Assembly (NCBI GenBank): GCA_035537095.1
Contig: DATLMV010000044.1
Span: forward strand, 41-64,040
Source of the DNA: Pyrinomonadaceae bacterium
Lineage (GTDB): Bacteria > Acidobacteriota > Blastocatellia > Pyrinomonadales > Pyrinomonadaceae
DNA: 64,000 nt
Direction: 5' to 3'
Below the pieces are notes generated by a model. It saw only the letters and a program-made list of their open reading frames with translations, did no database searches and was not told the origin of the DNA. A program made the position numbers and the translations under genes. Within the stretch, counting starts at the first letter, position 1. Each line of letters opens with the position of its first letter. Shown here piece by piece: positions 1,756 through 55,450 of the stretch.

Positions 1756-2676
1756 TTATTTGTTAACGACGCGGAAGGAATACCGCCCGGCATCTTCCGG
1801 CTCGCCGCCGGAGGCAAAGCCGCGCAGCCTGACTTGATAATCGCTGCGCTCAAACAGACTGGCAGGCACATCCAGATTGACGACCGCGCCCGCGCCCGTG
1901 CTGTCGGCTGTCAGGCGGTCGAAGCGTCGAAGCTCGCGCCCCTCGAAGTTTTCGAGACGGGCCTCGTAGGTCGCGTGCGCGCCGTCGGTTTCGAGTTGGA
2001 GGCGGACGGTCTGTGTTCCGGACGGAATTTCCAGACGCTTCGTCGCCCCCGCGTCGCGCGCCAGACCGGGCGTGAGCGTGACGGCGAAGACACCCGCGCC
2101 CGTCCCGCGACGCGACGCCGAATCGTCGCCTGAAGATTTCGTCAGTAACCACCACGAGCCGCCGAAGACGAAGACGAGCAGCGCCGCCGCCAGCGCGAAA
2201 CTCCAGGCCGGTCGCGGCCCTTGCAGGAAGGACGGAAGATATTTTTTACGTACGGGAGTCGGCAGCGGAGTCTGCCGCGCGGAATCCAAGACGCGTGCGG
2301 GCGACGAATCCGTCGCGTTTAGAGTTGACAAATCCGTCGCGTCCGCAGACGACAGAGTTGATATATCAACTGCGTCCGCTGCTTCTGCTTCGATGCTCGC
2401 CGCGACGTTCAGATACTTGTTGAAGGCGCGGGCGAATCTCAGTTTCTGTTGTCGTTCGGGTGTCGAGAGAAAGAAGTTTTCAAAACGCTCGCGCTCGACG
2501 GCGGGCAGCAGGCCGGAGAGATAACGGTCTATCAAATCGTCTTCGGAGGCCAGCAGTTCGTCGAAGAAATCGTCGTCGGTGAGAAGTTTTTCCTCGACCC
2601 TTTGGCGGCCTTCGGGGTCGAGCGAGCCCAACAGGTAGTTGCGGATATCCCCTTCATTATCAAGATGTTGTCTCAT
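1756..2676 (-). CDS. Putative anti-sigma factor, single-pass membrane protein
   Basis: 306 aa. N-terminal helical segment YLLGSLDPEGRQRVEEKLLTDDDFFDELL...RFENFFLSTPERQQKL, one TM helix (WSFALAAALLVFVFGGSWWLL), and a C-terminal extracytoplasmic domain of about 115 aa. Lies directly downstream of a sigma gene. Confidence 0.6.
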   Translation of the reverse strand: MRQHLDNEGDIRNYLLGSLDPEGRQRVEEKLLTDDDFFDELLASEDDLIDRYLSGLLPAVERERFENFFLSTPERQQKLRFARAFNKYLNVAASIEAEAADAVDISTLSSADATDLSTLNATDSSPARVLDSARQTPLPTPVRKKYLPSFLQGPRPAWSFALAAALLVFVFGGSWWLLTKSSGDDSASRRGTGAGVFAVTLTPGLARDAGATKRLEIPSGTQTVRLQLETDGAHATYEARLENFEGRELRRFDRLTADSTGAGAVVNLDVPASLFERSDYQVRLRGFASGGEPEDAGRYSFRVVNK

Positions 2677-2747
2677 CTGCCCGCTGCGCCCCCACTACCG
2701 AGCCTTCCCGCCCTTCCAACTGTTTATGCGAATTTCCCGATTCCATT

Positions 2748-3329
2748 TCACCCCGCCGCGCGCTCGGCCAGACAATCCTGCACGCATTGTTGGACGGTCA
2801 GGCGAATGCGGTGCGCGCGGATTCTGAGGGCGTTGAGCGCGATGCCGAGTTGTTCGGCGAGCCGCTTGCGGTTGTCAATCTTGGCCTGCCGCTCTTCCTG
2901 ATAATACTGCAAGAGCAGTTTGCGCTTGAGCGGCGCGAGGCGTTGCATGCAATGTTCCAGACACTCGTACTCGTCCGCTTCCGTCTCGTCCGTCTCGACC
3001 GTCGCCGCCGCGAGCGGCATCTGCGGCACAACCGTGTGTGGTCGCTTGCGTAAGTATTCGAGATGGACGCGCTGCGCGACGCCGTAAAAATAGAGCGCGG
3101 GATCGCCCGTCCAATCCGCCTCTATCTCGCTCAGTTTTTTGGTGACGCGATTGATGGTCTCATCCGACAGGACATCCGACTCGGTGCAGCCGCGACAGCT
3201 AAAAATTTTAATCAGCCGACACCGAATCTCTTCATACTTTCTTCCGGCCTCTTCGCGGCTCTCCGGATTGAGCCAGACGAGCAGCCGGTCGAAATCCTCT
3301 TGCGTTAGCACCCATTCTTTGTTCATCAA
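2748..3329 (-). CDS. ECF-type sigma-70 family RNA polymerase sigma factor
   Basis: 193 aa. Region-4-like HTH (RKRLAEQLGIALNALRIRAHRIRL) plus a region-2-like segment. The small size and the adjacent anti-sigma-like gene fit an ECF sigma factor. Confidence 0.75.
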   Translation of the reverse strand: MMNKEWVLTQEDFDRLLVWLNPESREEAGRKYEEIRCRLIKIFSCRGCTESDVLSDETINRVTKKLSEIEADWTGDPALYFYGVAQRVHLEYLRKRPHTVVPQMPLAAATVETDETEADEYECLEHCMQRLAPLKRKLLLQYYQEERQAKIDNRKRLAEQLGIALNALRIRAHRIRLTVQQCVQDCLAERAAG

Positions 3330-3420
3330 CTGATAGCCGGTCGGAATCTTGTTGCTCCGCCTTACAAAGCGTTCCAGAGAGCTTATCTTGACAACTTTGC
3401 GCGCGCATCACTCGCCGAAG

Positions 3421-6400
3421 TCAAAGCGCGGCGCGCGTCGTTCGCCTGCGCTTCTTGCGCCTGACAGTATAGATGCTGCCTCCGAGAAGTGTTAGCGTCA
3501 GAGCGACGGCGCTGCCCATCGCCGCCTGCCGTCCGGCGAAGCGCGGCGTCTCGCCGGGGATGTTGATCGCGCCTTCGTATTCGCCTTGCAGGACGAAGGC
3601 GGCCCAGTAGTAGGGCGAGCGCCAACGCTTCTGCCGCCACATGGCGATTTGCGCTTCGCGCAGTGCGGCGGCGGGCGTCATGCCTTCGCCGAGCATCCTC
3701 CGGTAGAACTGCTTCATCAACGCGGCGGTCGCTTCGTCGTCCACCTTCCACAGCGAGGCCATCACGCGCGGCGCGCCCGCATACATGAAGCCGCGCGTCA
3801 GCCCGACCAGCCCCTCGCCTCTGATCTCCTTGCCGAGTCCGGTGTTGCACGCGCTCAAGACGACGAGGTCTGCCGAGAGATTCAGACTGTAGATGTCCGG
3901 CAGGCGCAGGAACCCGTCCTGCGCCTGCCCGCGCTCGTCGAAGCGCGAGAGGACGAGGCCGGAGAGTTCGGGGTGCAGGCTGTCAATGATGCCGTGAGTG
4001 GCGAAGTGGACGATGCGATAGTCTGCGAGGCTCGGGTCGGTGGCGCGTGCGCGGCTGGCGTCGAAGCCGACGGCGCGCAGGCTCGCGCCCGCAGGCGCAA
4101 AAGACATGATCGCCTCGGCCTCGTCCTGCGAAGCGAACAGACGCGCGAGACGCAGGTCGTCTTCTCCCGCCGGAGCATCGCGCTCGCCGGAGACTGTTTG
4201 CAGTTCCGGCGTCTGCGACTCACGCTCGCGTGCGTTCTTCGTCTGCTTCGCGCGCGCCGCGACGAGACGCGCGTCTTCATACTCGAACACGGGGTCGGCC
4301 ACAACGGCGACGGCCTTCGGTGCGGGCGGACGCCGCGCGGTCTCCTGCCGCAGCGCGGCCAGCGCCGACGCCGAAGGCAGATAGACTATCTCGTGGCGCA
4401 GCATCAACGGCTCGCTCTCGACTTTGTCGCCGCGCGCCGCCGTGCCGTCGTCCTGCGCGCTCGCTTGCGGCGGCGCGTTCGTCTCTTGCTGTTGCGTGTT
4501 CGTCTCTTGCCGTGCGTTTGTCTCTTGCTGCGCGTTCGTCTCCGCGACGGTCAGAGCGTGAAAGGGAACGTACTGCAACGCGCCGTCGGCGACGATGAGA
4601 AGACGCTTGTTCTCCAAACGCGCGGCCAGAGGCCCGAGCAACATTTGACCGAGCGCGGCGGCCTGCGGCCAGTAGTCGGCGCTGGCGCGTGATTGTCGCG
4701 CCTGACGCTCCGGCAGGCTCTCGCCCGCGACGGGTTGATGCGCGAGCAGCAGTTCGTAGAGGCGACGCGCCGCCCGCTCGATCTCGGCGCGGCGGGGCAG
4801 TTCGTAGCTCTCGACGGAGTCGCGCGTGACGGCCCAGAGGTAACTGCGTTCGTCGCCGAGCGAGTATTCCAACATGAGCGTGCGTTCGTCGAGCACCTGA
4901 CGGCGAATCTCCGCGAGGCTGAGCGGGACGGGCCGCGTCAGCGCGGCGTAGCGCGGGCTGCGCTCGCGGCTCTGCGCTTCGAGCAGGTCGTACTGCGCCG
5001 TCAGGTTGCGTATCTCCTGCGCGAGCGCGGCGGCTTCCTCGTCGGTGTGCTTGCCGCTCAACAACTTCATCTGTCGTTCGGCGCGGGCGGCGAGCGCGCC
5101 GCGCAACTCGCGCTCGCGTTCCAAAAGCTTCGGGTCAATGTTGCGACGGATGCGCGCGCGGGCTTCGGAGAGGAGTTCGAGCAGGCTGCGCGCGCGTGCG
5201 CGCTCGCTCGCGTCGAGGGCGGCGACGTTCAAGCCCTCCGACGGTCGCTCGTCGTGCATCCGCATCAGCACGTCAATATAGAGTTCGTAATGCTGGTGGA
5301 CGGAGGCGAAGTAAGAGGCGCGCAAGCCTTCGCTGGAGACTCCGGCGCGCTGGCGTTCGATGAGTTCAATCGCGTCCTCGATCTGCGCGCGCGCTTCCCG
5401 CAGGTTCCCCACGTCGCGCTCGACGCGCGCGATGTTGTAGAGCGCGGACGCTTCCCCCGTGCGGTCTTCAACCTGACGGCTGAGCGCGAGCGCGGCGTCG
5501 AAACTGACGCGCGCGCGTTGTTTGTCGTCGAGAGAATCGTAGATCAAGCCGAGATTGTTGAGGGTCGAAGCCTCGCCCATCTTGTCTTCGAGCGTGCGGT
5601 AGAGCGGCAGGGCTTGGTTGTAAAAATCGCGCGCGCGCTGCTTGTCGCCGAGAGAGCTATAGACCATGCCGCTCGAATTGAGCGCGTAGGCTTTGGCGAG
5701 ACGATAGTTGAGCGCGGGGTTGAAGGAGAGCACCTGACGGTAACATTCCAGAGCCTCGCTCGCCTTCTCCAGAGATTGATACGCGCGACCGAGCAGGACG
5801 AGCGCGATGCTCTCATAATCGCGGTTGCCGACGGCGTGAAAGAGTTTGACGGCGCGGTCGTAGCAATCAACGGCGTGCTGGTGCTGCCCGAGATGATCGT
5901 AGACGTAGCCGAGGCCGTTGAGCGCGACGGCCTCGCCGCTGCGGTCGCCCATCCGGCGGAAAAGCTCGACCGAATCCTTGTGCAGGACGAGGGCGCGCTG
6001 CTTGTCGCCGAGATAAGAGTGTGCGCCGCCGAGCGCGGTCAGCGAGAGGGCTTCGCCCTGCCGGTCGCCGTTCTGCTTCCAGAGCGCGAGGGCGCGCTCG
6101 TAAAACTCCAAAGCCTTCGGCATCTCGCGCAGGTCGTAATGCGCGTAGCCGAGATTGTTCAACGCCTGCGCCTGCCCGCGCGTGTCGCCCGTCTCCTGCC
6201 AGAGGGCGAGGGCGCGCGTGAAATAGTCCAGAGCCTTCGGTATTTCGCTTGAAAAATAATAGACCTCGCCCAGATTATTGAGGGCTTGCGCCTCGACGCG
6301 GCGGTCGCCGACGCTGCGACCGAGACGCCGCGCGCGCTGGCAGAAGTCGCCCGCCTTCGGGGTTTCTCCGAGATAAATATAGACGTAGCCGATGTCGTTG

Positions 6401-6864
6401 AGGGTCTTTGCCTCGCCGCTTGTGTCCTTCGCGGCGCGCTCAAGCGCGAGGGCTTCCTTGTAAGCGTCGAGCGCGCGGGCGTACTCGCTGAGCGTGTAAT
6501 GAATGTCGCCGGTGCGCGAGAGCGCGGCGGCCTCCGCGCGCACGTCGCCCGCCGCACGCGCTTCCGCACGCGCCCGCTCGTACTCCTTGACGGCGGCGCG
6601 CGCCGCATCCTCACGCCACTCGCCGCGCAGACGTTCGCCGCGCGCAAACGCGCTCTCGAAAGTCGCGTCGTGATCTTCTCCCGTCGTCGCAGCCGCACCC
6701 GCTTGTGCGTCGTTCGGTGCGGCATGCACTACCCTGAGGCGCGACGCGGGCCTCGATGCCGCGCACACTAGAAGGAGCGCGAGCGAGAGTGGAAGGATGG
6801 AACGGCGGCGCAACTGACGGAGCCTTTCCGAAGCCGCGCGGTATCGTGTTAATTGACGAATCAT
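3421..6864 (-). CDS. TPR-repeat CHAT-domain protease with N-terminal signal/anchor and C-terminal TM anchor
   Basis: Track ORF 3421..7023 trimmed to the ATG at 6864-6862 (MIRQLTRYRAASERLRQLRRRSILPLSLALLLVCAA...), 1147 aa. About ten TPR-like repeats (ALNNLG.VY...G....A..Y...AL). CHAT dyad in VHFATHG (His codon 3996-3994) and VVLSACNTG (Cys codon 3849-3847). C-terminal hydrophobic helix followed by RRKKRRR. Confidence 0.9.
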   Translation of the reverse strand: MIRQLTRYRAASERLRQLRRRSILPLSLALLLVCAASRPASRLRVVHAAPNDAQAGAAATTGEDHDATFESAFARGERLRGEWREDAARAAVKEYERARAEARAAGDVRAEAAALSRTGDIHYTLSEYARALDAYKEALALERAAKDTSGEAKTLNDIGYVYIYLGETPKAGDFCQRARRLGRSVGDRRVEAQALNNLGEVYYFSSEIPKALDYFTRALALWQETGDTRGQAQALNNLGYAHYDLREMPKALEFYERALALWKQNGDRQGEALSLTALGGAHSYLGDKQRALVLHKDSVELFRRMGDRSGEAVALNGLGYVYDHLGQHQHAVDCYDRAVKLFHAVGNRDYESIALVLLGRAYQSLEKASEALECYRQVLSFNPALNYRLAKAYALNSSGMVYSSLGDKQRARDFYNQALPLYRTLEDKMGEASTLNNLGLIYDSLDDKQRARVSFDAALALSRQVEDRTGEASALYNIARVERDVGNLREARAQIEDAIELIERQRAGVSSEGLRASYFASVHQHYELYIDVLMRMHDERPSEGLNVAALDASERARARSLLELLSEARARIRRNIDPKLLERERELRGALAARAERQMKLLSGKHTDEEAAALAQEIRNLTAQYDLLEAQSRERSPRYAALTRPVPLSLAEIRRQVLDERTLMLEYSLGDERSYLWAVTRDSVESYELPRRAEIERAARRLYELLLAHQPVAGESLPERQARQSRASADYWPQAAALGQMLLGPLAARLENKRLLIVADGALQYVPFHALTVAETNAQQETNARQETNTQQQETNAPPQASAQDDGTAARGDKVESEPLMLRHEIVYLPSASALAALRQETARRPPAPKAVAVVADPVFEYEDARLVAARAKQTKNARERESQTPELQTVSGERDAPAGEDDLRLARLFASQDEAEAIMSFAPAGASLRAVGFDASRARATDPSLADYRIVHFATHGIIDSLHPELSGLVLSRFDERGQAQDGFLRLPDIYSLNLSADLVVLSACNTGLGKEIRGEGLVGLTRGFMYAGAPRVMASLWKVDDEATAALMKQFYRRMLGEGMTPAAALREAQIAMWRQKRWRSPYYWAAFVLQGEYEGAINIPGETPRFAGRQAAMGSAVALTLTLLGGSIYTVRRKKRRRTTRAAL
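4475..4543 (-). repeat. In-frame 18-21-nt tandem repeat inside the CHAT domain gene (ETNAQQ x4)
   Basis: Core gtt(c/t)gtctc(t/c)t recurs at 4477, 4498, 4516 and 4534 (periods 21, 18, 18). It encodes ETNAQQETNARQETNTQQQETNAPPQ. Confidence 0.85.
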
Positions 6865-7181
6865 AGACGGCCCTCCTGCGCTCAAAAGAGGCTCGAAGGT
6901 TTTGCCTGTCGGGTTTGGAATACTTTTGGAGACCTTACGAGGTAGCTGGACGAACGGAGCGGGTAAGCTTTCGTCTGGCCCGAAATGGAAGCTACTTTCT
7001 AACACGAATAAATGCGCCCGCACAAATATTTTCGCGCGCCCGAAATGAAAGAGGCCCGCCGACTTTGGCGCGCGCCCGTCTCTTGGCGGGCCGCACGGTC
7101 GGCGGGCATCTGTGAGACGCGGGGGAGGCGTCTCGTCCCGGAAAGTTTTCGCTCGCGGTTTGACGACTGCTTCCGGTTCGT

Positions 7182-7586
7182 CTATTTGCTGTCTCCACCC
7201 GGCGCTGGCGGCGTCGGCGTGACTTTGCCTTGCGGCGGCTGGCCTTCCTCTTCAATGCGCTGCAATCTGTTCTCGACGAAGTCTATCCTTTCGTCGTAAC
7301 TCTCGAAGGCCATCGCGGCCCCGCCCTCGATGCGGTCAATTCTCGTCTCAAGGCGGTCAACCCTGTTTCCTGACGCGACCTCGATGCGGTCGAGACGCGC
7401 TTCGATGCGCGAGAGCCATCCCTCCAGACGCCCGAACCATGCCGCGACCTCCTCAGGCTTGCCCGAAAAGCCGCCGCCCTTGCCCGCAAACCCGCCGGAG
7501 AACCCGCCGCCTTTGCCCCCAAAGCCGCCGCCCCCGCCGCCGGAGAATCCGCCTCCCTTACCTCCGAATCCGCCTCCCTCAGCCAT
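7182..7586 (-). CDS. Glycine-rich (GGGFSG repeats) / coiled-coil protein, hypothetical
   Basis: 134 aa. N-terminus MAEGGGFGGKGGGFSGGGGGGFGGKGGGFSGGFAGKGGGFSG, then heptad-spaced RLDRIE / RVDRLE / RIDRIE / RLQRIE repeats. AAAGGAG-type RBS upstream of the ATG at 7586. Confidence 0.6.
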   Translation of the reverse strand: MAEGGGFGGKGGGFSGGGGGGFGGKGGGFSGGFAGKGGGFSGKPEEVAAWFGRLEGWLSRIEARLDRIEVASGNRVDRLETRIDRIEGGAAMAFESYDERIDFVENRLQRIEEEGQPPQGKVTPTPPAPGGDSK

Positions 7587-7730: not shown

Positions 7731-8426
7731 TCAACCGAATCCGGCGGAAGGAATATTGTTCGACAAGACTTCGAGGAACTGCTGCGAACTGATGAGCCGA
7801 TCGAGCGGCAACTCCGCGAACCCCGGCGGGGCTTCGATAACCAGCACTCGGCCTTGATTGGTCTTTTCGTCCGACAACCAGAAAGCCTCGATGCGATACG
7901 ACGGCACGGTCAACAGGCGGACGAGCAGTTTATCCTCGACGTGCCGGTCTATCCACTTGATTGCTCTCTCGATGCTTTCCGCCAGCGGCGAGGAGAAAAA
8001 TTCGCGCACGCTCGAACTCTTCGGTTCGCTCTCGTCAATAACCGAACGCGCGAAGGCTTTCGCCACCCCGTCGAACTTTATCTGGTGATGCCAGCGTCCG
8101 GTGTTCTTCGCCAAGTCCGCGAGCGGGTCGCCGCCGCCGTCGCCGTCCTCCGGCTGCTTGTAAGCGCGAATCCCGTCAGTCCCGAGCGTGTAGAGCGAGA
8201 AACTCTCGCCGCAGCGAATCTCATTCGGCGGCGGCGTCGTCGTAGGCTCCTCGCCGCGCGTCCCGGAGTCCGGCGGCAGACCTCTCGTGGCGGTCGCGGG
8301 GGGAGAACCTTCGGGAGCGTTGCCCGCATCAGTCGCACGCACGTCCGCGCCGCCGACGAAATATCCCAACTGGTTGCGGATGGCCTTCAAACCGCGCTTG
8401 GATATCGGGTCAGGGTAAGTCCTCAT
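7731..8426 (-). CDS. Hypothetical protein (partner of upstream cysteine peptidase)
   Basis: Track ORF 7731..8474 trimmed to the ATG at 8426-8424 (MRTYPDPISKRGLK...), 231 aa. This ATG shares one base with the upstream gene's TGA (8428-8426). I recognise no family. The N-terminal ~80 aa is Pro/Thr/Gly-rich, followed by a ~150-aa globular-looking part. Confidence 0.55.
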   Translation of the reverse strand: MRTYPDPISKRGLKAIRNQLGYFVGGADVRATDAGNAPEGSPPATATRGLPPDSGTRGEEPTTTPPPNEIRCGESFSLYTLGTDGIRAYKQPEDGDGGGDPLADLAKNTGRWHHQIKFDGVAKAFARSVIDESEPKSSSVREFFSSPLAESIERAIKWIDRHVEDKLLVRLLTVPSYRIEAFWLSDEKTNQGRVLVIEAPPGFAELPLDRLISSQQFLEVLSNNIPSAGFG

Positions 8427-9142
8427 CAGATTCCTCCGTCTTTGCGCCGCAAGCCCGTCCAAGTGTGCAGCCATTGGCCGTCGTTGTTGTATGCGACTCG
8501 CAAGCTATCGTAACTGACTCGGCTATCCACAGGCGGGCCTTCGCCGGGGCCGTAGTCCTGAAAGGGGTCGAGGATGATAAAGAAATCCTCCGCGACGCCT
8601 CCGGGCTGCGGCACGGAGACCCAACCTTCGACCAGAATCACATGCCCGCGCACGTCGTCAGCGGTCGAGCCGTCCCACTCGAAGCCAACCTGCACGGGTC
8701 GGCCCTCGTTAATCTCCTGCTTGAGCGCGTCGGGCGCGATGCGTCCCGTGCGTTGGGCGTCGAGGTTGAGAAAATTTTTGAACAGCGTGTCAATCTCCTC
8801 GACCGACTCGCAGGTCGTCTCGACGCATTCGGATATGTTGTCCACCTGCGCCACGCAACAGTCCAACCCGACGGGCTTTCCGTGCAGCGTCTCCCGCACG
8901 AAACCGACGAGATGACACATCCGTCTGGGCGTTGCGCTGTCGAGAAAGCGTCCGAGCATCGTGCCGCACGCCGCCCAACACCATTTCCTCCGGTTGCCCT
9001 GCCTGATGCGCTGCACGCCGAGAGGATTGGTGAACTGCGGCGCGGGCGTGATGTCGCGCGTGGCTGTGGCGCGCGTGGCCCGGCGCGCGGCGCGGGGCCG
9101 CTTCGGCGTGATGATCAATCCGTCGGAGATCTCCAAAGGCAT
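8426..9142 (-). CDS. Papain-fold cysteine peptidase (C39-like / C70-like)
   Basis: 238 aa, no signal peptide. QGNRRKWCWAACGTML (Gln plus nucleophile Cys), GHVILVEGW (His) and FFIILDPF (Asp) form the papain-like Q/C/H/D pattern. The CWxAC motif is reminiscent of the C39_2 and AvrRpt2-type families. Confidence 0.6.
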   Translation of the reverse strand: MPLEISDGLIITPKRPRAARRATRATATRDITPAPQFTNPLGVQRIRQGNRRKWCWAACGTMLGRFLDSATPRRMCHLVGFVRETLHGKPVGLDCCVAQVDNISECVETTCESVEEIDTLFKNFLNLDAQRTGRIAPDALKQEINEGRPVQVGFEWDGSTADDVRGHVILVEGWVSVPQPGGVAEDFFIILDPFQDYGPGEGPPVDSRVSYDSLRVAYNNDGQWLHTWTGLRRKDGGI

Positions 9143-14750: not shown

Positions 14751-17700
14751 TCACTTGTTGTCTAAAATCGTCAGCGCGCCGCCCGCCGTGTTGGCCTGAA
14801 CGGTCGGCTGGTACATCTGCTCGACGCGCGCGGGCGCGATGCGAAACTCGCCGGGCACTTGCACGCGCATCGCGTATTGGAAGACGGCGTTGCCGTCGAA
14901 GTGGTTGACGAAGAAGGCGGCCTTCTGGTCGCGGAACTCGCGCGCGCTGTACCAATCGCTCCACCCGCTCGCGTCGTAGTCGAGACTGATGCCGCTCACC
15001 TCCGCGACCTGTTCGCAGCCCGCCGGAATCGGGTCTTCAATCAACAGGTAACTCGCCTGCTGGCCCTCGACTTTGAGACGCGAGACGATGGTGTCGCCCG
15101 AGCGGAGTTCGCCCGAAAGGGGTTCGGTCTTCCAGGTGGGCGTGCCCTTGTCGTCTTCGACGACGCGCAGGCGCAGGTATTCGCGCGTCACGCGCAACTG
15201 CGGCGAGCCTTGCGCGGCGACCTGTTCTTCGTTCGTGTAGTGCGTGAGCGTCGTCGAGAGATAGAGCAGCCCCGCGCCGTGTTTGACGATGCGGATTTCG
15301 CTCGCGCCGCCGACTTCCGTTCCCTTGCGCTGGATAACGATGGACGGCGCGGAGGTGGCATCGGCGGCGGTCATCTGCTTGGCGAGCACCTGTTCGCCGT
15401 TCAGGTAAACTTCGAGCGAATAATCGGGCGACAATTCGGAGCTCGCCTTGAGATAGTCGGTCAGGCCGAAGATGGCGAAGGCCGTGTCTTTGGTCGAGTA
15501 CCAGTAGTTGCCGTGCTTGCGGCTGAGGACGAGCCAGCGCGCCGCCTGCGGCATCAGCGCGCTCTGCGGAGAGATGCGCGCCAGAGCCTTGAGCGAGAGC
15601 GCGGTCGCTTCCACTTCGTTGGACTCGGTTGTGCCGTAATGCGTCTTGCGGTTTGACGGCCAATGCGCGCCGCGCGCGTCGGACGAGACGGTGCGTTCGA
15701 TTTCGGCGGCGACCACTTGTGCGCGCTTCGCGTCGCCGAGCGTGGAGAGCGCGAGCGCGAGCAGCGAGCGACCGTAGGGTTGAAGGTTGCCGCGTTTGTT
15801 GAAGAGATCGTCGGTGTAGCGCGCTTCGCCCGCGCCGCTCGTCGCCAGCGCGTAGATCATGTAGGCGCGCGTTTCCAAATCAATGTCCGCGCCCTCGTCG
15901 GTCTTGCCGGAATCAATCATCGCGCGGAGTTTTTCGCGTCCCCGTTCGAGACGCGCCTCGTCAACTTCGTAACCGGCGCGACGGGCGAGCGTCAAACCGT
16001 CCACGACGTAGGCCGACATGAAGGGGTCGGTAGCATCGTTTTTCCACCAGCCCCAACCGCCGTCCTCGTGTTGGAAACCGTAGAGACGGCGCAAGCCCCG
16101 TCGCACTTTGCGCTCGATGTTGTTCGAGTCTTTGATGGAAGCGGACTGCACCTCTTTGAGCGTCTGCGCGACGATGACGGTCGGGAGAAACTGCGACATC
16201 GTCTGCTCCGTGCAGCCGTAGGGGTAGCCGGTCAGGTAGTCGAGCGCGCCGAAGAGCGTGCCCGCGATGGAGGGCGCGACTTCGATGCGCAGGCGGCGCG
16301 AATACTGCTCGGCGTTGGCGGGCAACTTGAAGGTATAGCTCTGCTCGGCGTCGTTTTCCGAGACGGCGACCGATTCGGCGTGCACCCGCCGCAGACCGCG
16401 CGGCACGACTTCCAAACCCATCTCGACGGCGTCGGATTCCGTGTCGGTCAAGGCTTTGGCGAGAATCGTCAGTTCGCCCGTGTGCGGCGCGGCGACGCGC
16501 CAGTTGACGCGGTGTTCGCCCTGACTGGGAATCTGGACGGTCTGCGCGGGCGGGTCGAGCAGGCGCGCGCCGCCGCCGACATCAATCGTTATCTTCGTCG
16601 TCTTATCCTGTTTGAGATAGTTGTGCACGATGCCGGAGAGCGTCACGGTGTCGCCTTCGGTGAGGAAGCGCGGCATGGCGAGACGCAGGATAACGTCTTT
16701 ACGCGCGAGCACCTTTTCAACCGCGACGCCGACGCGCGTGTCGGCGGTGACGGCGCGGGCCGTCGCGCGCCACGTCGTCAGGTTGTCGGGCAGGTCAACT
16801 TTGACGCTCGCCTTGCCGTCCGCGCCCGTGACGACGTTTGACTGCCAGAAGGCCGTGTCTTTGAAAATCTTGCGTATCTTCGGATTGACGAACTCCGCAT
16901 CGTTCTTGAAGTCCGCGAGTTGGAAGGCGCGGCGGTTCGCGGCCAGTTGCATGGGCTTCTTACCGGCGTAGCCGGTGAAGGTGTAGTTGACGGAAAAACT
17001 GGTCGTCACTTCGTTGTAGCGGCGACCGTAGAAGTGGCGGCGGATGTCTGTGACGCTCTCTCCGGCGATGCTGTAGATGGACTCGTCAACGACGCCGAGG
17101 CTCACCTCCGCGCCCGCCGCCGGAGAGCCGTCCATGTTGCGCGCGAGGATGGTGTAAGAGGCGGGGTCGCGCGGTTTGTACTCCTTCTTGTCGGGGATGA
17201 TTTGCAGGTTCAGCAGCTTATCGCGCGCGGGCACGACGAGCATCTGGTCTTGCGTGTACATGTCGCTGTTGCGCACGTATGTGACGTTGAGAAAGACGTT
17301 CGGCGCATAGCGCGCCTCGATGGGCACGTCAATCACGACCGTGCGACCGACGGACTCGACTTGGCGGACGGTCAGGACGTTCATCAGTTCGGTCGTCACG
17401 AGCAGGTGCGCTTTATCCGTCGGCAGCAGGGCGAGGACGTGCGCCGTCTCGCCGACGCGGTAGGATTTCTTATCGGGCACGAGTTTGATTGTCTCCTCGC
17501 CCTGATAGGAGAGGTCAGTCCATTGATTCTCGCGGTCGGCGACCCAGATGGAGCCGCCTTCGGACGTGACCTGCTTGCCGCGCTCCTCGACGGTCGTCTT
17601 GATGTGGACGCTCCCCGGTATCTGCACGCGGTAATCGTAAGAGGCTTCGCCCTGCGCGTTGGTCTCGACCGTGGCGGCGGAGAGTTCTTTCTCCTTCATG

Positions 17701-19787
17701 TCGTAGCCCGGATACTCCTGCCCGAAGTCGTCCTTGCGCGCCACCTTCTCCCAGCGACGTTCGACGAACGTCAGCTTAACGCGCGTCTGCACGGGCCTGC
17801 CTTCGCGGTCGCCCGCGCGGACGAGAATCTTCGCCGTGTCGTTCTGGTAATAGACGAAGCGTTCAGGCTGCGCGGTTGCGACGGTGTTCGCGCGCACGCC
17901 GATGAAGCTCGCGCTGCCGTCCATCGTGCGGCGCGCGGCGTCCGTCACCTGCACGTCTATGCGATAGGTCGAATCGTACAACTCTTTGGCGTCGGGCGGC
18001 GCAACGTTGAACGGGATTTCGAGGCGGCCCTGCGCGTCGAGTTTGCCTTCGCCCTCCTGCACCAACTGGTCGCCGTAGCCGTAACCGCCCTCGCCGCCCT
18101 CGCCTTCCTCCGCCGAGGGGTCTTCGCCGAACTCGTCGGCCAACTCCTCGTCCTCGCCCTCGCCGCGCCACCAGCCGTAGTAACGCGAACGATAGACGTA
18201 ATACTTCACGCCCGCGCGCGTGACCGGCGCGCCGAAGAAATACTTGGCCGAGACGGTGAACTTCGTCGTCTCGCCCGCGTTGACGTAGCGTTGCGGGACG
18301 CCGACGCTCACCTTGTATTCGGGTTTCTTATACTCCTGCACGTCGAAATATCCGGTCGCCGTCGTCTCGCCGACTTGCGCCGTGATGTTGTATGTGCCGA
18401 GCGCGGCTTCTTCCGGCAGATCGAGTTCGCCGCCGAACGTGCCGCGCGAAGAGAGCTTCAACTCCTGCTCGAAGAGGCGTCCGCTGTTCGGGTCGTCAAC
18501 CGTCACGCTGATTGTCTTGCCCGGCAGCAGGCGGTAGCCGTTCTCCGTCAGGCGGCGCAGGATGCCTTTGAAATAGACCTTCTGTTCGGGACGATAGACG
18601 GGGCGGTCGGTGTAGATATAACTGGTCAGCGTCTCGTCGCTCCCGCCTTCGCCTTCGCCCTCCTCCGCAAACTCGCCCTCGCCTTCGCCCCCGCTGAAAT
18701 AGAACGAGTCGAGATCGGAGACGGCGAAGTTCTCGCCCTCGCTCGCCAGCACGAGATAGGAATCGTTGACCGGCTCGCTCGATTCTTCCGCTGCCTCCGC
18801 GCCCTCTTCGCCCGCGCCCGCTTCCGCGTCGCCCGCCGCCGCTTCCGCCTGCTTCGCATCGAGAGCGGCGGCCTTCTTCTTGTCCAGCGTGATTCTCAAC
18901 AAGCCCTGCTTGTCCGTGACGCCGCCCTGCAAGCTCTCCGCGCCGCGCACGATTTCGACGCGCACGCCGCCGCGCGGCTGGCCCGTTCGTCTCTCGACCG
19001 CATAGACGAGCATCTGCCCGTCGCGCGAGGTCTTCTGAATCGTCGTCAGGTCGGTGACGATGGTGACGCCGTAGGCGCGCAGGTCGCCGTTGACCGCTTC
19101 GACCAGATAGACGCCCGCCTCGCGTTTGCCGAGCGAGATCATCCGGCGGTCGTACACGTCTTCGAGCGGCGGCAACTTCTCGCGCCAACTGCTCACCATC
19201 TGATCGGGATTCAACAAAGGCACGCGCGCATAGTCGGCGACGTTCAACGGCGTGCGGTTGCTCTCCGCGACGGCGTCTTCGTCGGGGCGGCGAAACTTCT
19301 GGTTAAAACCCTTGCGCGATTGATTCTGAAGTTGCGAGCGGACGTAGGTTTTAATCGCGCCGTAGACGGAATTTTTGAAGGCGCGGAGTTTCTCCAAAAA
19401 CGTCGGCTGGCGTTTGATCATCTTGGCGACTTCCGCCGCCTCTTCGTCTTCGCCGACCTGATGCGGGTTGTCGAGTTGCTTGAAAAACTTCAACGGGTCT
19501 TTGACCTTATAGACGCGGAAGTCGAGTTGTTCGACGCCGCGATAATTCACCCAGACGCGCGCGCGGTCGGTCGTCCCGTACGTGCGATTGGTGACGAGCG
19601 AGAAGAAGGGCTTGGCGTTCTCGGCGGGCGGGTGGCGTTCGGCCTGCGGGTACTCGGAGAGCGTGTCGGGCGCGCTCTGCAAGGCGAAGCGGTTCTGCGT
19701 CCGCACGCGCAACACGGAGAAACCGAGCGCCAGAAGAATCACGCCCGCATAACAGGCGACGGTCAGGAGAACGTTTCGACGATTCAT
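14751..19787 (-). CDS. Alpha-2-macroglobulin family protein with thioester (membrane-anchored)
   Basis: 1678 aa. N-terminal TM (LLTVACYAGVILLALGF), MG-domain-like repeats, and the thioester motif GYPYGCTEQTMSQFLP (CTEQ codons 16214-16203). Confidence 0.9.
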   Translation of the reverse strand: MNRRNVLLTVACYAGVILLALGFSVLRVRTQNRFALQSAPDTLSEYPQAERHPPAENAKPFFSLVTNRTYGTTDRARVWVNYRGVEQLDFRVYKVKDPLKFFKQLDNPHQVGEDEEAAEVAKMIKRQPTFLEKLRAFKNSVYGAIKTYVRSQLQNQSRKGFNQKFRRPDEDAVAESNRTPLNVADYARVPLLNPDQMVSSWREKLPPLEDVYDRRMISLGKREAGVYLVEAVNGDLRAYGVTIVTDLTTIQKTSRDGQMLVYAVERRTGQPRGGVRVEIVRGAESLQGGVTDKQGLLRITLDKKKAAALDAKQAEAAAGDAEAGAGEEGAEAAEESSEPVNDSYLVLASEGENFAVSDLDSFYFSGGEGEGEFAEEGEGEGGSDETLTSYIYTDRPVYRPEQKVYFKGILRRLTENGYRLLPGKTISVTVDDPNSGRLFEQELKLSSRGTFGGELDLPEEAALGTYNITAQVGETTATGYFDVQEYKKPEYKVSVGVPQRYVNAGETTKFTVSAKYFFGAPVTRAGVKYYVYRSRYYGWWRGEGEDEELADEFGEDPSAEEGEGGEGGYGYGDQLVQEGEGKLDAQGRLEIPFNVAPPDAKELYDSTYRIDVQVTDAARRTMDGSASFIGVRANTVATAQPERFVYYQNDTAKILVRAGDREGRPVQTRVKLTFVERRWEKVARKDDFGQEYPGYDMKEKELSAATVETNAQGEASYDYRVQIPGSVHIKTTVEERGKQVTSEGGSIWVADRENQWTDLSYQGEETIKLVPDKKSYRVGETAHVLALLPTDKAHLLVTTELMNVLTVRQVESVGRTVVIDVPIEARYAPNVFLNVTYVRNSDMYTQDQMLVVPARDKLLNLQIIPDKKEYKPRDPASYTILARNMDGSPAAGAEVSLGVVDESIYSIAGESVTDIRRHFYGRRYNEVTTSFSVNYTFTGYAGKKPMQLAANRRAFQLADFKNDAEFVNPKIRKIFKDTAFWQSNVVTGADGKASVKVDLPDNLTTWRATARAVTADTRVGVAVEKVLARKDVILRLAMPRFLTEGDTVTLSGIVHNYLKQDKTTKITIDVGGGARLLDPPAQTVQIPSQGEHRVNWRVAAPHTGELTILAKALTDTESDAVEMGLEVVPRGLRRVHAESVAVSENDAEQSYTFKLPANAEQYSRRLRIEVAPSIAGTLFGALDYLTGYPYGCTEQTMSQFLPTVIVAQTLKEVQSASIKDSNNIERKVRRGLRRLYGFQHEDGGWGWWKNDATDPFMSAYVVDGLTLARRAGYEVDEARLERGREKLRAMIDSGKTDEGADIDLETRAYMIYALATSGAGEARYTDDLFNKRGNLQPYGRSLLALALSTLGDAKRAQVVAAEIERTVSSDARGAHWPSNRKTHYGTTESNEVEATALSLKALARISPQSALMPQAARWLVLSRKHGNYWYSTKDTAFAIFGLTDYLKASSELSPDYSLEVYLNGEQVLAKQMTAADATSAPSIVIQRKGTEVGGASEIRIVKHGAGLLYLSTTLTHYTNEEQVAAQGSPQLRVTREYLRLRVVEDDKGTPTWKTEPLSGELRSGDTIVSRLKVEGQQASYLLIEDPIPAGCEQVAEVSGISLDYDASGWSDWYSAREFRDQKAAFFVNHFDGNAVFQYAMRVQVPGEFRIAPARVEQMYQPTVQANTAGGALTILDNK

Positions 19788-21025: not shown

Positions 21026-21528
21026 GCGGCGGGCAACGGTGCGGCACACGCGGGAGATTATCGCCCGCTTTCGACGCGCGCGCGAGACTGAGGCTGACAT
21101 AGCGAGTAGCATGCCGCAACGCGCCGCGCCTGTGGCTATCCACATTGACGGCGCGGCGCGTTATCGAGCACGGACTCCTGCGGGTGTGTGCCGCGCATCC
21201 GCGTTCTCAAAACAGGCTCTGTCCTGAGGATTACGCTCGCGCCGTTTTTGTGACGGCGAAGTTCGGGCTGCAAGCTTTCGTCTCTCCGGCGTTCTTCAAG
21301 CGTGTGTGATTTAATGCGCCCGCACGCGCGTGCGCTTTGTCTAAAGGAAATATCCGTCACGCACGCGCACGGGGCGGCGTTAAGTTAAGTTTAGGCAGCG
21401 CGGTCAACCTTCCGGCGGCGCGGCGTCATCAGAGTCGAAACGGTTGCGTGCGGCGGGCGTCCGCTCCGGCGGTCGTCGCCGTCTTCCGTGAAGCCTTCCG
21501 AGATCGAAAGAGACTGTTCCTCAATTCT

Positions 21529-24500
21529 ATGAAACCACTTAAAGCGTCCATCCTGCCGCTCATTCTTCTGCTGCTCGCGCCCCTCGCGCTCGCAGCCGCG
21601 CAACAGGGCGAGTACGAAAAACTCAAGACCGAAGCCGAGCGTTTCTACGCCGAATCCTCGTATGCGCGCGCGCGCGAGTTGTACGAGCGCGCCGACGCTC
21701 TGGAAATTCCGGCGGACGATGCGCGATGGGTTGATTTTCGTCTCGCCGATACGCTCTGGCGCGCGCAGGCCGCGACCGAAACCGCCGACACGACCAAGCA
21801 CGAACGCGCGCGTGCGGAACTCGAAGAGTTGATTCGCGAGAGCGAGCGCGCGGGCAAGCGCGACCGGGTGTGGGCCGAGGCGCACGAGTCGCTCGGTGAT
21901 TTCTGGTGGACGCGGCGCGAAGTGCGCGCGTGGGGCACGGCTTGGCCGCACTACAAGGAGGCGTTGGAGTGGTGGGCCGGGGCGCGCGACATCGAAGCGG
22001 CGCGCACGCGTTATCTCAAGATCGTCTGGACGGTCGCCCGCCCGCCCCGCGTCGAGGATTATTACTACTACGGCTACCACGGCAACACCCTGCCGATGGA
22101 TGTCCTTGAGAACGCGCTCAAGATCACGCGCAGCCGCGAAGACCAAGCGCACGCGCATTATCTGCTGGCGATGACCTTGCGGCAGCAGGGCGACGGCGAG
22201 ATGCGCGCGCGCGCCGAGGAGGAGTTTGAGGCCGCGCTCAAGACGGGCAAGGCGAGCGAGTGGTACGACGATGCGCTCCACTTCTACGCCGAGTGGTTGT
22301 CGAACTACGGTCGCGCGCGCGCGTCGGAGGATGGTCAATGGACGTTCGAGCCGGACTTCGTGAAGGCGGTCGCGTTGTATCGTCGCCTGCTCGCGGAGCA
22401 CCGCAAGGGCGAGACGCGCTACTACGATACGGCGCAGCAGCAGGTAGAAAATCTGACGAAGCCGACGCTCAACGTCGGCGTCTCGAACGTCTTTCTGCCC
22501 GACTCCGAGATACAGTTTCATGTCAACTGGCGCAACGTCCGGCGCATCAACTTCGCGCTCTATCCGCTCAACCTTCCGCGCGACGTGCGTTTCGAGAGCA
22601 AGGACGCAGACCAATCTTGGATACAGGCCATCAGGCCGCCCGCCGGACAGCGCGTGCGCGCTTGGACGAAGGAGACGGGAGACAAAGGCGACCACACTCC
22701 GGCGCAGGAGTTGGCGCGCATCGAGGGCAAACTGCCCGTCGGCGCGTACCTTCTGGAAGCGACGACCGAGAGCGGCGTGCGCGCGCGTGAAGTGATTCTC
22801 GTGACGGATGCCGCGCTCGTCCTGAAGTCGTCGGGCAAGCGTGCGCTCGTCTATTTCTGCAACGCGCAGACGGGCGCGCCCATCGCGGAGGCGAGCGTCA
22901 AGGTCTGGCAGAGGATGTACCAGAACAGCGTGTGGGTCTGGTGGGAGAAGTCCGGCGTGACGAACGCGGACGGCATCGCCGTCTTCGATTTACCGGAGAA
23001 AGAGCACGGTTCGGAGATGTTCGCCAGCGCGGAGCAGCAGGGCCGACAGGCGTTCAGCAACGGCTACACTTCGTATCATCACACGGACGCTCAGGCGTGG
23101 CGCATCTACGCCTTCACGGATCGTCCCGCCTATCGCCCGCGCGAGACGATGCAATGGAAGTTCATCGCGCGCCGCTACGAGGCGGGCACGTATTCGACTC
23201 CGGCGCAGCAGACTGTCGAGTTTGAAATCGCCGACCCGCGCGGCACGAAGGTGCATGAAGGCAAGGCTGTCTTGAACACGTTCGGCAGCGCGTGGGGGAC
23301 GCTCGAACTGACGGAGGCGATGCCGCTCGGCGAGTATCGCGTCACGTTCTGGAACGCCGGACGCCAGCAGCACATCGGCGGCGCGACGCTCTTTCGTCTC
23401 GAAGAGTACAAGCTGCCGGAGTTCAAAGTTAAAATCAGCACGCCCGAAGTTGACGGCAAGCGCAAAGCGTTCCGGCTCGGCGAGCGCGTCGAAGTCAAAC
23501 TCGAAGCCGCTTATTACTACGGCGGGCCGGTCGGCGGCGGCACGGTCGAAGTCCTCGTCTATCAGAACCCCTTCTATCATTGGTGGCAACCGGAGCGCGA
23601 CTACTCTTGGTACTACGACGACTCGGAGCGGATGCGCCGCTACTACGGCGGCGGCGGGCAGATTATCAAACGCGAGACGCTGAAGCTCGACGCCGAGGGC
23701 CGTGCGTCTCTGAACTTCGAGACGCCGCGCAGCGCGGGTCAGGATTTCGAGTATCGCATCGAGGCGCGCGTCACCGATGCGTCGCGGCGCGAGATCACCG
23801 CCAACGAGACGGTGCGCGTCACGCGCCAGCGTTACTACGTCTATCCGCGCGCCGAGCACAATCTCTATCGCCCGCAGGATACGGTCAAACTCGACATCAA
23901 GGCGCTCGACGCCAACAATCAGCCGGTCGTCGCCGAAGGGCAGTTGAAGGTGACGCGCGACTACTGGTACGAAATCTGGATTGACCCGCAGGGGCGCGAG
24001 GTCAAGGGCGAAGAACTGCGCCTCCTGCGCGCACGGCACGGCATGTTTCCGCCCGCGCCGAAGGCGGGCGCGCGCACGGGCTGGCGTCTCAAGTTTCGCG
24101 GCTACGAGTACGACGACATCCTGACGCAGACCGTCAAGACAGACGACGCGGGCGCAGCCGAGTTTCGTTTCAAGCCGGAGCGCGAGGGCTTCTACCGCCT
24201 CTCTTGGACGAGCCCCGACAAGGGCGCGCAAGCTATCCGCGCGGAGACGACCGTGTGGGTTGCCACCAACGCGACGACCGAGACGGGCTACCGTCAGGGC
24301 GGCGTCGAGATCATCGTAGACCGCGATACTTTCCGCGCGGGCGAGACGGCGCGCTTAATGTTGAGCGTCCCGACGAACGACCGCTACGTGCTGTTCAGCG
24401 TCGAGGGCGAAGACCTCTACAGCTATCGTCTCGTGCATCTGACGGGCACGGCGAAACTCATCGAGTTGCCCGTCGAAGAACGACACGTCCCGAACATCTT

Positions 24501-49366: not shown

Positions 49367-50608
49367 TTACTGCACGGCGTAGAGATTGCCGTCCCAACTG
49401 CCGAAGTAGATGAGTCCGGCGGAGACGGTGGGCGGGGCGGAGACGGTGCGTGCGGTTTTGAACTCCCAGACGGGTTGGCCGTCGGCGGCGTCGAGGGCGC
49501 GGATGCCGCCGACGCTGCCGAAGTGCAGGAGGCCGCCCGCGACGAGCGGCGCGGAACTGATGCCTTCGGGCGATTGATGCCGCCAAAGCTCGCGGCCCGT
49601 CGCGGCGTCGAGCGCATAGACGGTTCCGTCGAGGCTGCCGAAGAAGACGCTTCCCGCGCCCGCGGCGGGCGAGAACGGAATGCCGGTCGCCGCTTTAGCG
49701 TGCCACTTCTCCTCGCCCGTCGCGGCGTCTATGCAGTAGAAACTTCCGTCGAGACTTCCGAAGTAGAGCCTGCCTTCGTGGTACGCCGGAGCGGAGACGA
49801 CCATGCTCTCCGTCTGAAATCTCCAACGCTTCTGCCCCGTCTGCCGGTCAAGCGCATAGATGCCCTTCGTGTTTCCGAAATAGATGCTCTCGCCCCCGGC
49901 GACGGGCGACGACGGCACGCCCGTCGCCGGATTGAAACGCCACTTCTCAAGACCCGACGCAGCCGAGAGCGCGTAGAGCACGCCGTCCGTGCCCGCGAAA
50001 TAGACGAACCCGTCGGCGACGACCTGCGTCGAGTTGATGGCGTATTCGGTCTTGAACTTCCAACGCTCTCTGCCCGTCGCGGCGTCAACCGCGTAGAACT
50101 TATTATCCTGACTGCCGAAGAAGATCATGCCCGCCCCGGTCGCGGGCTGCGAGAGCACGCGCCCGCCCGTCTTGAACGCCCAGCGCACGCTGCCCGTCGC
50201 CGCGTCAACCGCGTAGAGTTTGCTGTCGTAGCTTCCGAAATAGACCGTGCCGCCGTCGAGCGCGGGCGAAGCGTAGATGCTGCCGCCGGTCTTGAAAGTC
50301 CACTTCGGCGCGAGCGTGCGCACGGGTGTCGCGTTGGTCGCGGGTGTCGCGCTTGCCGCCCTTGTCGCGTTGCGCGCGGGCATCACGGGAGCATCGTCGT
50401 CGTTCGTCGTCGCCGTTGTTGTTTGAGCGGCGTTGTTGACGGAAGTCGTCTGCTTCGCGGCATTGAGCGTCTGCGCGTCGGCGTTGAGCGTCTGCGCGAC
50501 GTTGTTGACAGACGCGCAGGCGCAGAGCAGAAGCGACGCGGCGAGCATCCGTGCGGGGGTGTTGGTTTTGCTTTTGACTTTCAAGGCGTCCTCACTTGAG
50601 CGTTGCAT
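49367..50608 (-). CDS. PQQ-like (BamB-like) beta-propeller repeat protein, secreted
   Basis: 413 aa. Seven or eight repeats of the form (F/L)YA(V/L)DAATG...W.FKT. Signal peptide or lipobox-like LLLCAC. Thr/Asn/Ala-rich linker. Confidence 0.8.
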   Translation of the reverse strand: MQRSSEDALKVKSKTNTPARMLAASLLLCACASVNNVAQTLNADAQTLNAAKQTTSVNNAAQTTTATTNDDDAPVMPARNATRAASATPATNATPVRTLAPKWTFKTGGSIYASPALDGGTVYFGSYDSKLYAVDAATGSVRWAFKTGGRVLSQPATGAGMIFFGSQDNKFYAVDAATGRERWKFKTEYAINSTQVVADGFVYFAGTDGVLYALSAASGLEKWRFNPATGVPSSPVAGGESIYFGNTKGIYALDRQTGQKRWRFQTESMVVSAPAYHEGRLYFGSLDGSFYCIDAATGEEKWHAKAATGIPFSPAAGAGSVFFGSLDGTVYALDAATGRELWRHQSPEGISSAPLVAGGLLHFGSVGGIRALDAADGQPVWEFKTARTVSAPPTVSAGLIYFGSWDGNLYAVQ

Positions 50609-55327: not shown

Positions 55328-55450
55328 AAAGAAATCTCCTCAAAAATTTGTTACCTGTTAATTTTAGTCTCTTAAAGTTGATTCCCAAGCGTCGCTCAAA
55401 ATCAACTGTCATGCGTCTCTCAAAAGCTGTTGGGAAATACGGGTCATGCT

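Follow-up and report, generated by a model that had tools for sequence, protein, structure and literature searches.

A predicted periplasmic TPR-CHAT protease linked to an ECF-like sigma/anti-sigma pair in Pyrinomonadaceae, probably a split form of the DdvA-type module

A stretch of 64,000 nucleotides (nt) from a Pyrinomonadaceae bacterium of the Acidobacteriota (assembly GCA_035537095.1, contig DATLMV010000044.1), referred to here as the window, carries three consecutive genes transcribed from the minus strand (coordinates are positions in this window). They encode a protease with tetratricopeptide repeats (TPR) and a CHAT domain (3421-6864), a sigma factor resembling those of the extracytoplasmic function (ECF) type (2748-3329), and a single-pass anti-sigma protein (1756-2676), with gaps of 91 and 71 nt, the latter lying between the sigma and anti-sigma genes. 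The linkage of the three genes is far beyond chance, and the TPR-CHAT protease, predicted to be periplasmic, is very probably coupled in function to the sigma/anti-sigma pair. The trio is probably a split, two-protein version of the module known from DdvA-DdvS of Myxococcus xanthus, and not a categorically new system.

The longest reading of the TPR-CHAT open reading frame (ORF) spans 3421-7023 on the minus strand; the ATG at 6864, with an AGGAGG sequence 7 nt upstream, gives a product of 1147 amino acids (aa). The true start of the sigma gene is probably the ATG at 3326. An earlier, sequence-only reading of this DNA had described the three minus-strand genes, both gaps, the His/Cys dyad and the hydrophobic segments at either end of the protease, and all of these were confirmed. 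The features of the trio, all on the minus strand, are as follows.

3421-6864 (-): TPR-CHAT protease gene, 1147 aa, product predicted to be exported and C-terminally anchored (ORF, ribosome-binding site, Pfam, AlphaFold2, Foldseek)
6742-6801 (-): N-terminal hydrophobic segment, aa 22-41, after an Arg-rich stretch; putative Sec-type signal peptide or signal anchor (hydropathy, homologues)
5347-6696 (-): TPR superhelix, aa 57-506, about 11 repeats (Pfam TPR_12, TPR_1 and related families; helix pairs with a predicted local distance difference test score, pLDDT, above 90)
3580-4887 (-): CHAT (caspase-fold) domain, aa ~660-1095 (Pfam match aa 735-1095; beta-sheet core of the model from aa 662)
3994-3996 (-): catalytic His957, in HFATHG (translation; invariant in 67/67 sigma-linked CHAT domains)
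3847-3849 (-): catalytic Cys1006, in VVLSAC (translation; invariant in 67/67)
3442-3525 (-): predicted C-terminal membrane helix, aa 1114-1134, followed by RRKKRRR, aa 1135-1141 (hydropathy; helix 1109-1146 in the model)
2748-3329 (-): divergent ECF-like sigma factor, 193 aa, with six conserved Cys (sub-cut-off matches to NCBIfam ECF models, homologues)
2368-2676 (-): N-terminal helical domain of the anti-sigma protein, aa 1-103, predicted cytoplasmic, without Cys or His zinc ligands (NF052375, weak zf-HC2 match, model)
2131-2211 (-): predicted membrane helix of the anti-sigma protein, aa 156-182 (hydropathy and model)
2056-2076 (-): membrane-near motif L201-x-P203-G204-x-x-R207 (LTPGLAR), candidate cleavage site by inference (alignment, model)
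1765-2091 (-): C-terminal immunoglobulin (Ig)-like beta-sandwich of the anti-sigma protein, aa 196-304, predicted periplasmic (AlphaFold2, pLDDT above 90)

Linkage of the three genes and their fused relatives

The gene neighbourhood survey that the sequence-only reading had proposed was run from both ends of the trio, and the linkage proved to be conserved in each direction. One genome per species was scanned with an alignment of the sigma factor, which returned at least 561 relatives, and the best 80 loci were examined. A CHAT gene accompanies the sigma gene at 72 of these, lying directly upstream on the same strand in 43, in convergent orientation just past the anti-sigma gene in 16, and fused to the anti-sigma gene in 13; five of the eight remaining loci are on contigs too short to tell. 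The sigma/anti-sigma pair itself is kept in 78 of the 80. Sampling from the CHAT side used metagenome contigs and loci with at least 1.2 kb of downstream sequence. Here the pair adjoins every one of the 12 CHAT genes whose products have the C-terminal anchor, as against 21 of the 44 that are unanchored (Fisher p = 7e-4). Protein look-ups agree: three out of three tailed relatives have downstream of them a sigma homologue at 46-60% identity and an anti-sigma homologue at 33-39%, and of two tail-less relatives the pair stands beside one and not beside the other. The CHAT half of the protease has more than 7,900 relatives, nearly all in Blastocatellia/Pyrinomonadaceae, and most of these cover just 92% of the query, that is, they end before the C-terminal helix and tail.

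At the 13 fused loci, whose sigma factors are 54-62% identical to that of the window, the gene after the sigma gene encodes a protein of about 1200 aa. Its N-terminal domain (aa 1 to about 95) is homologous to that of the 306-aa anti-sigma protein; beyond it come a single membrane helix (about aa 110-145), TPRs and, at the C-terminus, CHAT. By this layout the CHAT domain of the fused proteins should be on the opposite side of the membrane from the part that binds sigma, and it belongs to the input of the anti-sigma protein. Fused and split loci interleave in a neighbour-joining tree of the sigma factors, a crude tree without support values from which we draw no inference on the number of fusion events. 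The proposal that the CHAT protein is functionally wired to the pair is therefore supported both by conserved synteny and by the 13 fused loci.

Folds and predicted location of the three proteins

In Pfam, the protease is assigned a CHAT domain spanning aa 735-1095 (E = 4e-68), and numerous TPR families match across approximately aa 90-500. Its AlphaFold2 model (pLDDT 81, predicted TM-score 0.74) comprises, in order, a TPR superhelix at residues 57-506, a helical linker, a caspase fold extending to residue 1094, about 15 disordered residues and a long C-terminal helix. A sequence search of solved structures returned TPR proteins only. A Foldseek search with the model finds human separase (1.4e-14), DdvA (8rw5 and 8rot; 1.7e-14) and Csx29 (2e-12); separase is the best structural match overall, with a TM-score of 0.46 normalised to the query, and DdvA has the highest sequence identity among these matches, at 15-16%. 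The His957/Cys1006 dyad is unchanged in all 67 sigma-linked sequences (54 split and 13 fused). As modelled, the protein is thus a TPR-CHAT protease of separase/craspase/DdvA-like fold with an intact dyad that is invariant in the alignment.

Two side features of this protein family are apparent. The CHAT domain of the window protein contains an insertion at aa 777-814 (4423-4536, minus strand) of low-complexity QETNA-type repeats, disordered in the model and corresponding to tandem repeats at 4464-4542, and a second disordered insertion at aa 878-904. Many tail-less homologues (P0105, P0115, P0031, P0090, P0057) have an extra beta-rich domain between the signal peptide and the TPRs, with the signature …GQFxHIVVDQRGIDVV…YRLEV…GRYEVKIEEL, and a similar domain at locus L007 (7504-8019) may be a separate small exported protein.

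Kyte-Doolittle analysis places hydrophobic segments at aa 22-41, following the Arg-rich stretch, and at aa 1114-1134, preceding RRKKRRR, and there is a possible signal cleavage site at about aa 48, between VHA and A. Of 49 full-length, sigma-linked split CHAT proteins, 45 have a signal-like segment near the N-terminus, whereas internal control windows of the same 49 give 3, 0 and 0; a C-terminal membrane helix with a basic cluster (RRRR or KRRRK) is found in about 50 of 55 sigma-linked split homologues. These counts support the argument of the sequence-only reading that the TPR array and the dyad face the periplasm. Two more specialised interpretations of the termini were considered and set aside. 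A sorting signal of PEP-CTERM or LPXTG type is not indicated, as the residues before the C-terminal helix are unconserved in about 50 homologues and no NCBIfam sorting-signal model matches at E ≤0.01, and because no motif is kept there the helix is better read as a plain stop-transfer anchor. Similarly, RRRSIL in the window protein resembles a twin-arginine motif, yet it is unconserved among homologues, so that Sec is a likelier export route than twin-arginine translocation (Tat). Given a Sec-type signal at one end and, at the other, a stop-transfer helix whose tail is basic, the entire TPR-CHAT body should be periplasmic. From the terminal segments, the positive-inside rule and the topology of the fused relatives we therefore predict that the protease faces the periplasm from the inner membrane, and the short disordered stretch that precedes the C-terminal helix in the model should keep the catalytic domain near the outer face of that membrane, some 15-20 residues from it.

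The 193-aa sigma factor is highly diverged. It has no match in Pfam, and none of its matches to NCBIfam ECF models reaches the cut-off; they include TIGR02989 (2e-9) and TIGR02937 (1.6e-6; 27.8 bits against a cut-off of 42.9), the latter with positions 31-164 of 165 aligned. Among its homologues Sigma70_r4_2 is recognised in 23 of 29 and Sigma70_r2 in just one of 29. The sigma relatives form a family of 3,715 proteins, whose alignment reveals six invariant or near-invariant Cys arranged as three pairs, C44xxC47 in the sigma-2 part and C122xxxC126 and C181xxxC185 in the sigma-4 part.

A motif that recurs near these genes was considered as a shared ECF-type promoter and rejected in that role. 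AAGACG..TCTTTAGGTACAAT, the sole recurrent motif, is found in about 20 loci and is absent from the window; it overlaps the Arg codons of the CHAT tail and the stop codon (L008, L009, L018, L026, L038 and about 15 more loci). It closes with TACAAT, a box similar to -10 elements, and may serve as an internal promoter of the sigma gene.

The 306-aa protein matches the NCBIfam 'antisigma' model NF052375 (1.7e-9, under its cut-off) and, more weakly, zf-HC2 (17.3 bits against a cut-off of 22.2), and an identical public copy has been named 'anti-sigma factor RsiW' by the Joint Genome Institute (JGI). A profile of the family finds 16,076 cluster representatives at E ≤1e-3 and 4,530 at E ≤1e-30, falling into two length classes. 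The single membrane helix is placed at aa 153-180 by hydropathy and at 156-182 in the AlphaFold2 model (pLDDT 80), where it stands between a five-helix N-terminal domain (aa 1-103, pLDDT >90) with a disordered linker and, after a short disordered segment, the Ig-like beta-sandwich (aa 196-304, pLDDT >90). The C-terminal domain had been put outside the membrane in the sequence-only reading, as is also predicted here; its size, given there as about 115 aa, is revised to about 124 aa beyond the membrane, of which about 109 aa are folded in the model. A sequence search of solved structures with the anti-sigma protein gave nothing meaningful, and Foldseek with the outside domain returned generic Ig-like folds only (CopC, PD-1, phage Ig domains), which offers no functional lead.

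Several elements of the anti-sigma protein are relevant to how it might be regulated. The motif L-x-P-G-x-x-R opens the outside domain, with L201, G204 and R207 invariant in the alignment and P203 present in at least 90% of sequences, and runs into a low-confidence loop (pLDDT <50 at aa 206-210); lying about 20 residues from the membrane, this loop is a candidate cleavage site. Residues 1-103 contain no Cys, and the N-terminal domain is thus not the CHCC zinc domain of DdvA, although peripheral members of the family still match zf-HC2. The loss of the usual zinc ligands of the anti-sigma protein, together with the six Cys of the sigma factor, suggests from the alignments that a metal or redox site is located on the sigma factor itself. 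Finally, the length of the part outside the membrane co-varies with the CHAT type, being 115-131 aa in anti-sigma proteins that accompany an anchored CHAT and 166-211 aa in those with an unanchored one (Mann-Whitney p = 2e-9), which fits a geometric match between the partners.

Neighbouring genes and a proposed signalling route

Three further minus-strand features lie upstream of the protease gene.

8426-9142 (-): papain-like cysteine protease, Peptidase_C70/AvrRpt2-like, 238 aa, without signal peptide; probable accessory member (Pfam, gene context)
7731-8474 (-): 247-aa protein travelling with the C70-like gene (homologues upstream of CHAT in L022, L025, L028, L032)
7182-7586 (-): 134-aa Gly-rich/coiled-coil ORF between the 247-aa gene and the CHAT gene; membership uncertain (ORF)

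A gene for a cysteine protease without a signal peptide is located just upstream of the CHAT gene in nearly all loci of the anchored type that have upstream room. Usually this is a Peptidase_C11 protein (43 of the 80 loci, e.g. L002 4168-5613 and L006 6486-7997); in the window and in L028 and L032 its place is taken by the C70/AvrRpt2-like protease, whose Pfam match in the window scores 23.6 bits against a cut-off of 19 (5e-5), and the 247-aa partner, which matches no Pfam or NCBIfam family. The conservation of this upstream cytoplasmic protease gene indicates that the unit is probably larger than three genes; of the three-part unit described in the sequence-only reading, the trio itself stands and its extent probably does not. 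The 134-aa ORF lacks homologues throughout the 80 related loci and is perhaps not a genuine gene; its N-terminal Gly-rich repeat (GGGF/GKGGGFSG) derives from tandem DNA repeats at 7458-7578, and its C-terminal part consists of heptad-like RIE/RLD units.

Recurrent neighbours of other kinds, namely thymidine kinase, HMGL-like and M20 peptidase genes, were considered as members and rejected, since they look like a conserved chromosomal position. An exported ARPP-1 domain protein (PF20208, E = 6e-62) is encoded near the cassette in 28 of the 80 loci (L052 10209-11258; L002 2629-3657), and its recurrence with thymidine kinase may likewise reflect position and not function. A second, unrelated CHAT protein of 1221 aa is encoded at 45579-49244 (plus strand), with CHAT at its C-terminus (Pfam 1e-21) and an alpha/beta-hydrolase or lipase-like domain (AHSMGG) at its N-terminus; it lacks a signal peptide, and no sigma gene lies close by. 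Within 8-15 kb of the exported protease are two alpha-2-macroglobulin genes, at 14751-19787 (minus strand, 1678 aa) and 21337-27576 (plus strand, 2079 aa), both with MG2, A2M, bait region, TED and bMG10 domains; bacterial alpha-2-macroglobulins are periplasmic protease traps. Farther right, the overlapping ORFs at 49367-50608 contain five diverged copies of a 120-nt coding repeat (49582-50288), which looks like a repeat-domain protein, and an Rfam Acido-Lenti-1 small RNA at 55450-55495 (minus strand; 47 bits against a gathering score of 37) is consistent with an acidobacterial origin.

We propose the following route for the trio. The TPR array would sense a periplasmic, probably proteinaceous, cue, and the CHAT protease so activated would make the site-1 cut in trans, on the anti-sigma protein's periplasmic portion, with the conserved LxPGxxR loop as the candidate site. 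A site-2 protease (RseP/M50 type), normally encoded elsewhere in a genome, and cytoplasmic proteolysis would then free the sigma factor, switching on its regulon, and the upstream cytoplasmic cysteine protease (C11 in most loci, C70-like in the window) would be a candidate output or downstream component. The cleavage and its position, the way in which information flows and the regulon are all inferred, and we consider the whole chain from cue through CHAT cleavage of the anti-sigma protein to sigma release to be moderately probable.

Several observations weigh against this proposal. The cleavage step is a proposal both for this family and for DdvA itself, and the topology is a prediction from hydropathy and the positive-inside rule. 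Assignment of the sigma and anti-sigma proteins depends on sub-cut-off matches plus gene context: a sequence search of solved structures with the sigma profile matched no sigma structure, and its comparison with Escherichia coli RpoE was weak (E = 0.007 and a probability of 5.6%), and we do not use it as evidence. A search upstream of the sigma, CHAT and C11 genes for a promoter that would define the regulon found no shared ECF-type motif. The length co-variation is confounded by clade, as anchored and unanchored CHATs accompany sigma factors of different sub-clades. Finally, half of the unanchored CHAT genes have no sigma gene nearby, and this CHAT family must thus have other roles as well.

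The coupling could also operate by binding without cleavage. The CHAT and anti-sigma proteins would then meet in the periplasm with the Ig-like domain serving as a docking site, an adaptor or a securin-like pseudo-substrate inhibitor, signalling would occur by partner switching or by self-processing of CHAT, and the true CHAT substrates would be other envelope or foreign proteins. Synteny, fusions and co-variation are evidence of coupling and not of who cleaves whom; moreover separase, the best structural match, is under pseudo-substrate control, the Ig-like domain is a generic binding fold, and TPR arrays are protein-binding modules. We nonetheless think a binding-only mechanism unlikely, given that the dyad is invariant even in the fusions, where the nearest chain is the anti-sigma protein's own linker, that the anchored CHAT should be close to the membrane, near the conserved anti-sigma loop, and that the DdvA data fit regulated intramembrane proteolysis. 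A different possibility is that the protease is the output, a co-transcribed or regulon-encoded envelope protease deployed under stress, with the anti-sigma protein sensing by itself through its Ig-like domain. It is established that ECF sigma genes commonly cluster and are co-transcribed with their targets (ECF groups, PMC7826278), and both the varied gene order, with CHAT upstream or convergent downstream, and the unanchored homologues that lack a sigma gene are in keeping with such a role. An output role leaves unexplained why CHAT is covalently part of the anti-sigma protein in 13 loci, and is hard to reconcile with an anchor that predicts sigma linkage perfectly (12/12) and with the co-variation of anti-sigma length and CHAT anchoring mode; we regard it as quite improbable.

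The remaining alternative is that the trio acts in the cytoplasm and descends, as a remnant or as a branch independent of CRISPR (clustered regularly interspaced short palindromic repeats), from the type III-E Craspase circuit (Csx29-Csx30-RpoE). The sequence-only reading had drawn the parallel with type III-E, and the three-part logic on which it was drawn does stand. Csx29 is among the structural matches, and the sigma factor finds the type III-E RpoE model NF041236 faintly (E = 0.0045). A closer relationship is not borne out and the likeness is one of analogy only: the RpoE hit reaches just 16.9 bits where the cut-off is 100, the protease bears a predicted export signal and anchor, the anti-sigma protein is single-pass with a domain outside, and the PADLOC defence models give TPR matches only. 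The window was confirmed to contain no gRAMP/Cas7-11 gene, other Cas genes or CRISPR array, its very large ORFs being the alpha-2-macroglobulins. Descent from a Craspase circuit is thus extremely improbable.

Returning to cleavage in trans, a bolder and rather doubtful extension is that the Blastocatellia contain thousands of periplasmic caspase-like site-1 systems of this kind, in which a membrane-tethered TPR-CHAT, on sensing a cue from the envelope or from a foreign protein, would cut the anti-sigma protein at the Arg loop and free a Cys-rich, metal- or redox-gated sigma factor that induces the cytoplasmic C11/C70 protease. If true, this would be a two-compartment protease relay resembling the caspase cascades of innate immunity, with the first caspase-fold site-1 protease.

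Comparison with known systems

Among ECF groups, a parallel in gene content is offered by ECF54 of Actinobacteria, which has a conserved CHAT-domain gene nearby and for which proteolytic control has been proposed (PMC8999054, PMC7826278). A CHAT gene is conserved near an ECF or ECF-like sigma gene in both cases; membership of the window sigma factor in ECF54 is unlikely, because that group is actinobacterial and has no anti-sigma protein whereas the window is from Acidobacteriota and has one. The type III-E Craspase consists of Cas7-11/gRAMP and Csx29, a TPR-CHAT protein, with Csx30 and RpoE (PMC10028731). It shares with the window the combination of a TPR-CHAT protease, related in structure (Csx29, E = 2e-12), and a protein that holds an ECF-like sigma factor. 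Craspase, however, is cytoplasmic, is activated by target RNA through Cas7-11 and cleaves Csx30, whereas the window protease is predicted to be exported, has neither Cas7-11 nor an array for company, and is paired with a membrane anti-sigma protein that is unrelated to Csx30 as far as tested.

The separase-securin pair shares the layout of helical repeats and a caspase fold, and separase is controlled by a bound pseudo-substrate; it occurs in the cytoplasm or nucleus of eukaryotes, has cohesin as its substrate and is connected with neither membranes nor sigma factors. The canonical systems of regulated intramembrane proteolysis, RseA-DegS-RseP and RsiW-PrsW-RasP, resemble the window in having a single-pass anti-sigma protein with a sigma-binding domain inside and a domain outside, and this outside domain needs to be removed by a site-1 protease ahead of site-2 cleavage. 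To our knowledge, the known site-1 proteases are serine or metalloproteases (DegS, PrsW, Prc/CtpB types) and are usually encoded outside the sigma operon; unlike these systems, the window cassette itself encodes a caspase-fold cysteine protease with a TPR array.

The closest counterpart is DdvA-DdvS, solved by Bernal-Bernal et al. (Sci Adv 2024; PMC11506125). DdvA is a transmembrane anti-sigma protein with a periplasmic TPR-CHAT, and without that domain its RseP-dependent degradation is permitted; its authors proposed signal-induced self-cleavage by CHAT as the site-1 step, which was beyond their test because the trigger is unknown, and described DdvA as the only characterised anti-sigma of its kind, with likes only in Myxococcota and one Comamonas (PMC11506125). 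Both systems combine a TPR-CHAT of separase/craspase type, an intact dyad, a single-pass anti-sigma protein and an adjacent ECF-type sigma factor, and the order proposed there, a site-1 cut by CHAT and then RseP, is also the mechanism that we favour for the window. DdvA is a single polypeptide, an architecture that the 13 fused relatives share, whereas in the window the two parts are separate genes with the sigma gene in between. Also unlike DdvA, the window CHAT has its own signal peptide and C-terminal anchor (both predicted), its anti-sigma N-terminal domain has no CHCC zinc site and is joined to an Ig-like outside domain of its own, its sigma factor carries six conserved Cys, and no CRISPR island or island of the cyclic-oligonucleotide-based anti-phage signalling system (CBASS) is near the trio. 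Sequence likeness is marginal, with a match at E = 4e-4 for a fused relative, in the TPR region only.

The concept of CHAT as a site-1 protease is thus not unprecedented. Of the novelty claimed for it in the sequence-only reading, the statement that the mechanism lacks an experimental demonstration holds, and the concept itself had already been proposed for DdvA (PMC11506125). In the library searched, no other paper joins TPR-CHAT with the periplasm, and we found none on the acidobacterial family. With 16,076 anti-sigma cluster representatives and at least 561 sigma relatives, the DdvA-type design appears to be far more widespread than reported, and its unexpected abundance in Acidobacteriota, with fused and split forms side by side, is of particular interest. 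Because the split form has the protease and its presumed substrate as separate proteins, it makes the claim of a caspase-fold site-1 protease directly testable. If this is confirmed, sigma-factor signalling would gain a site-1 protease of a new class, and some members of the vast and mostly uncharacterised bacterial TPR-CHAT repertoire would be assigned a function.

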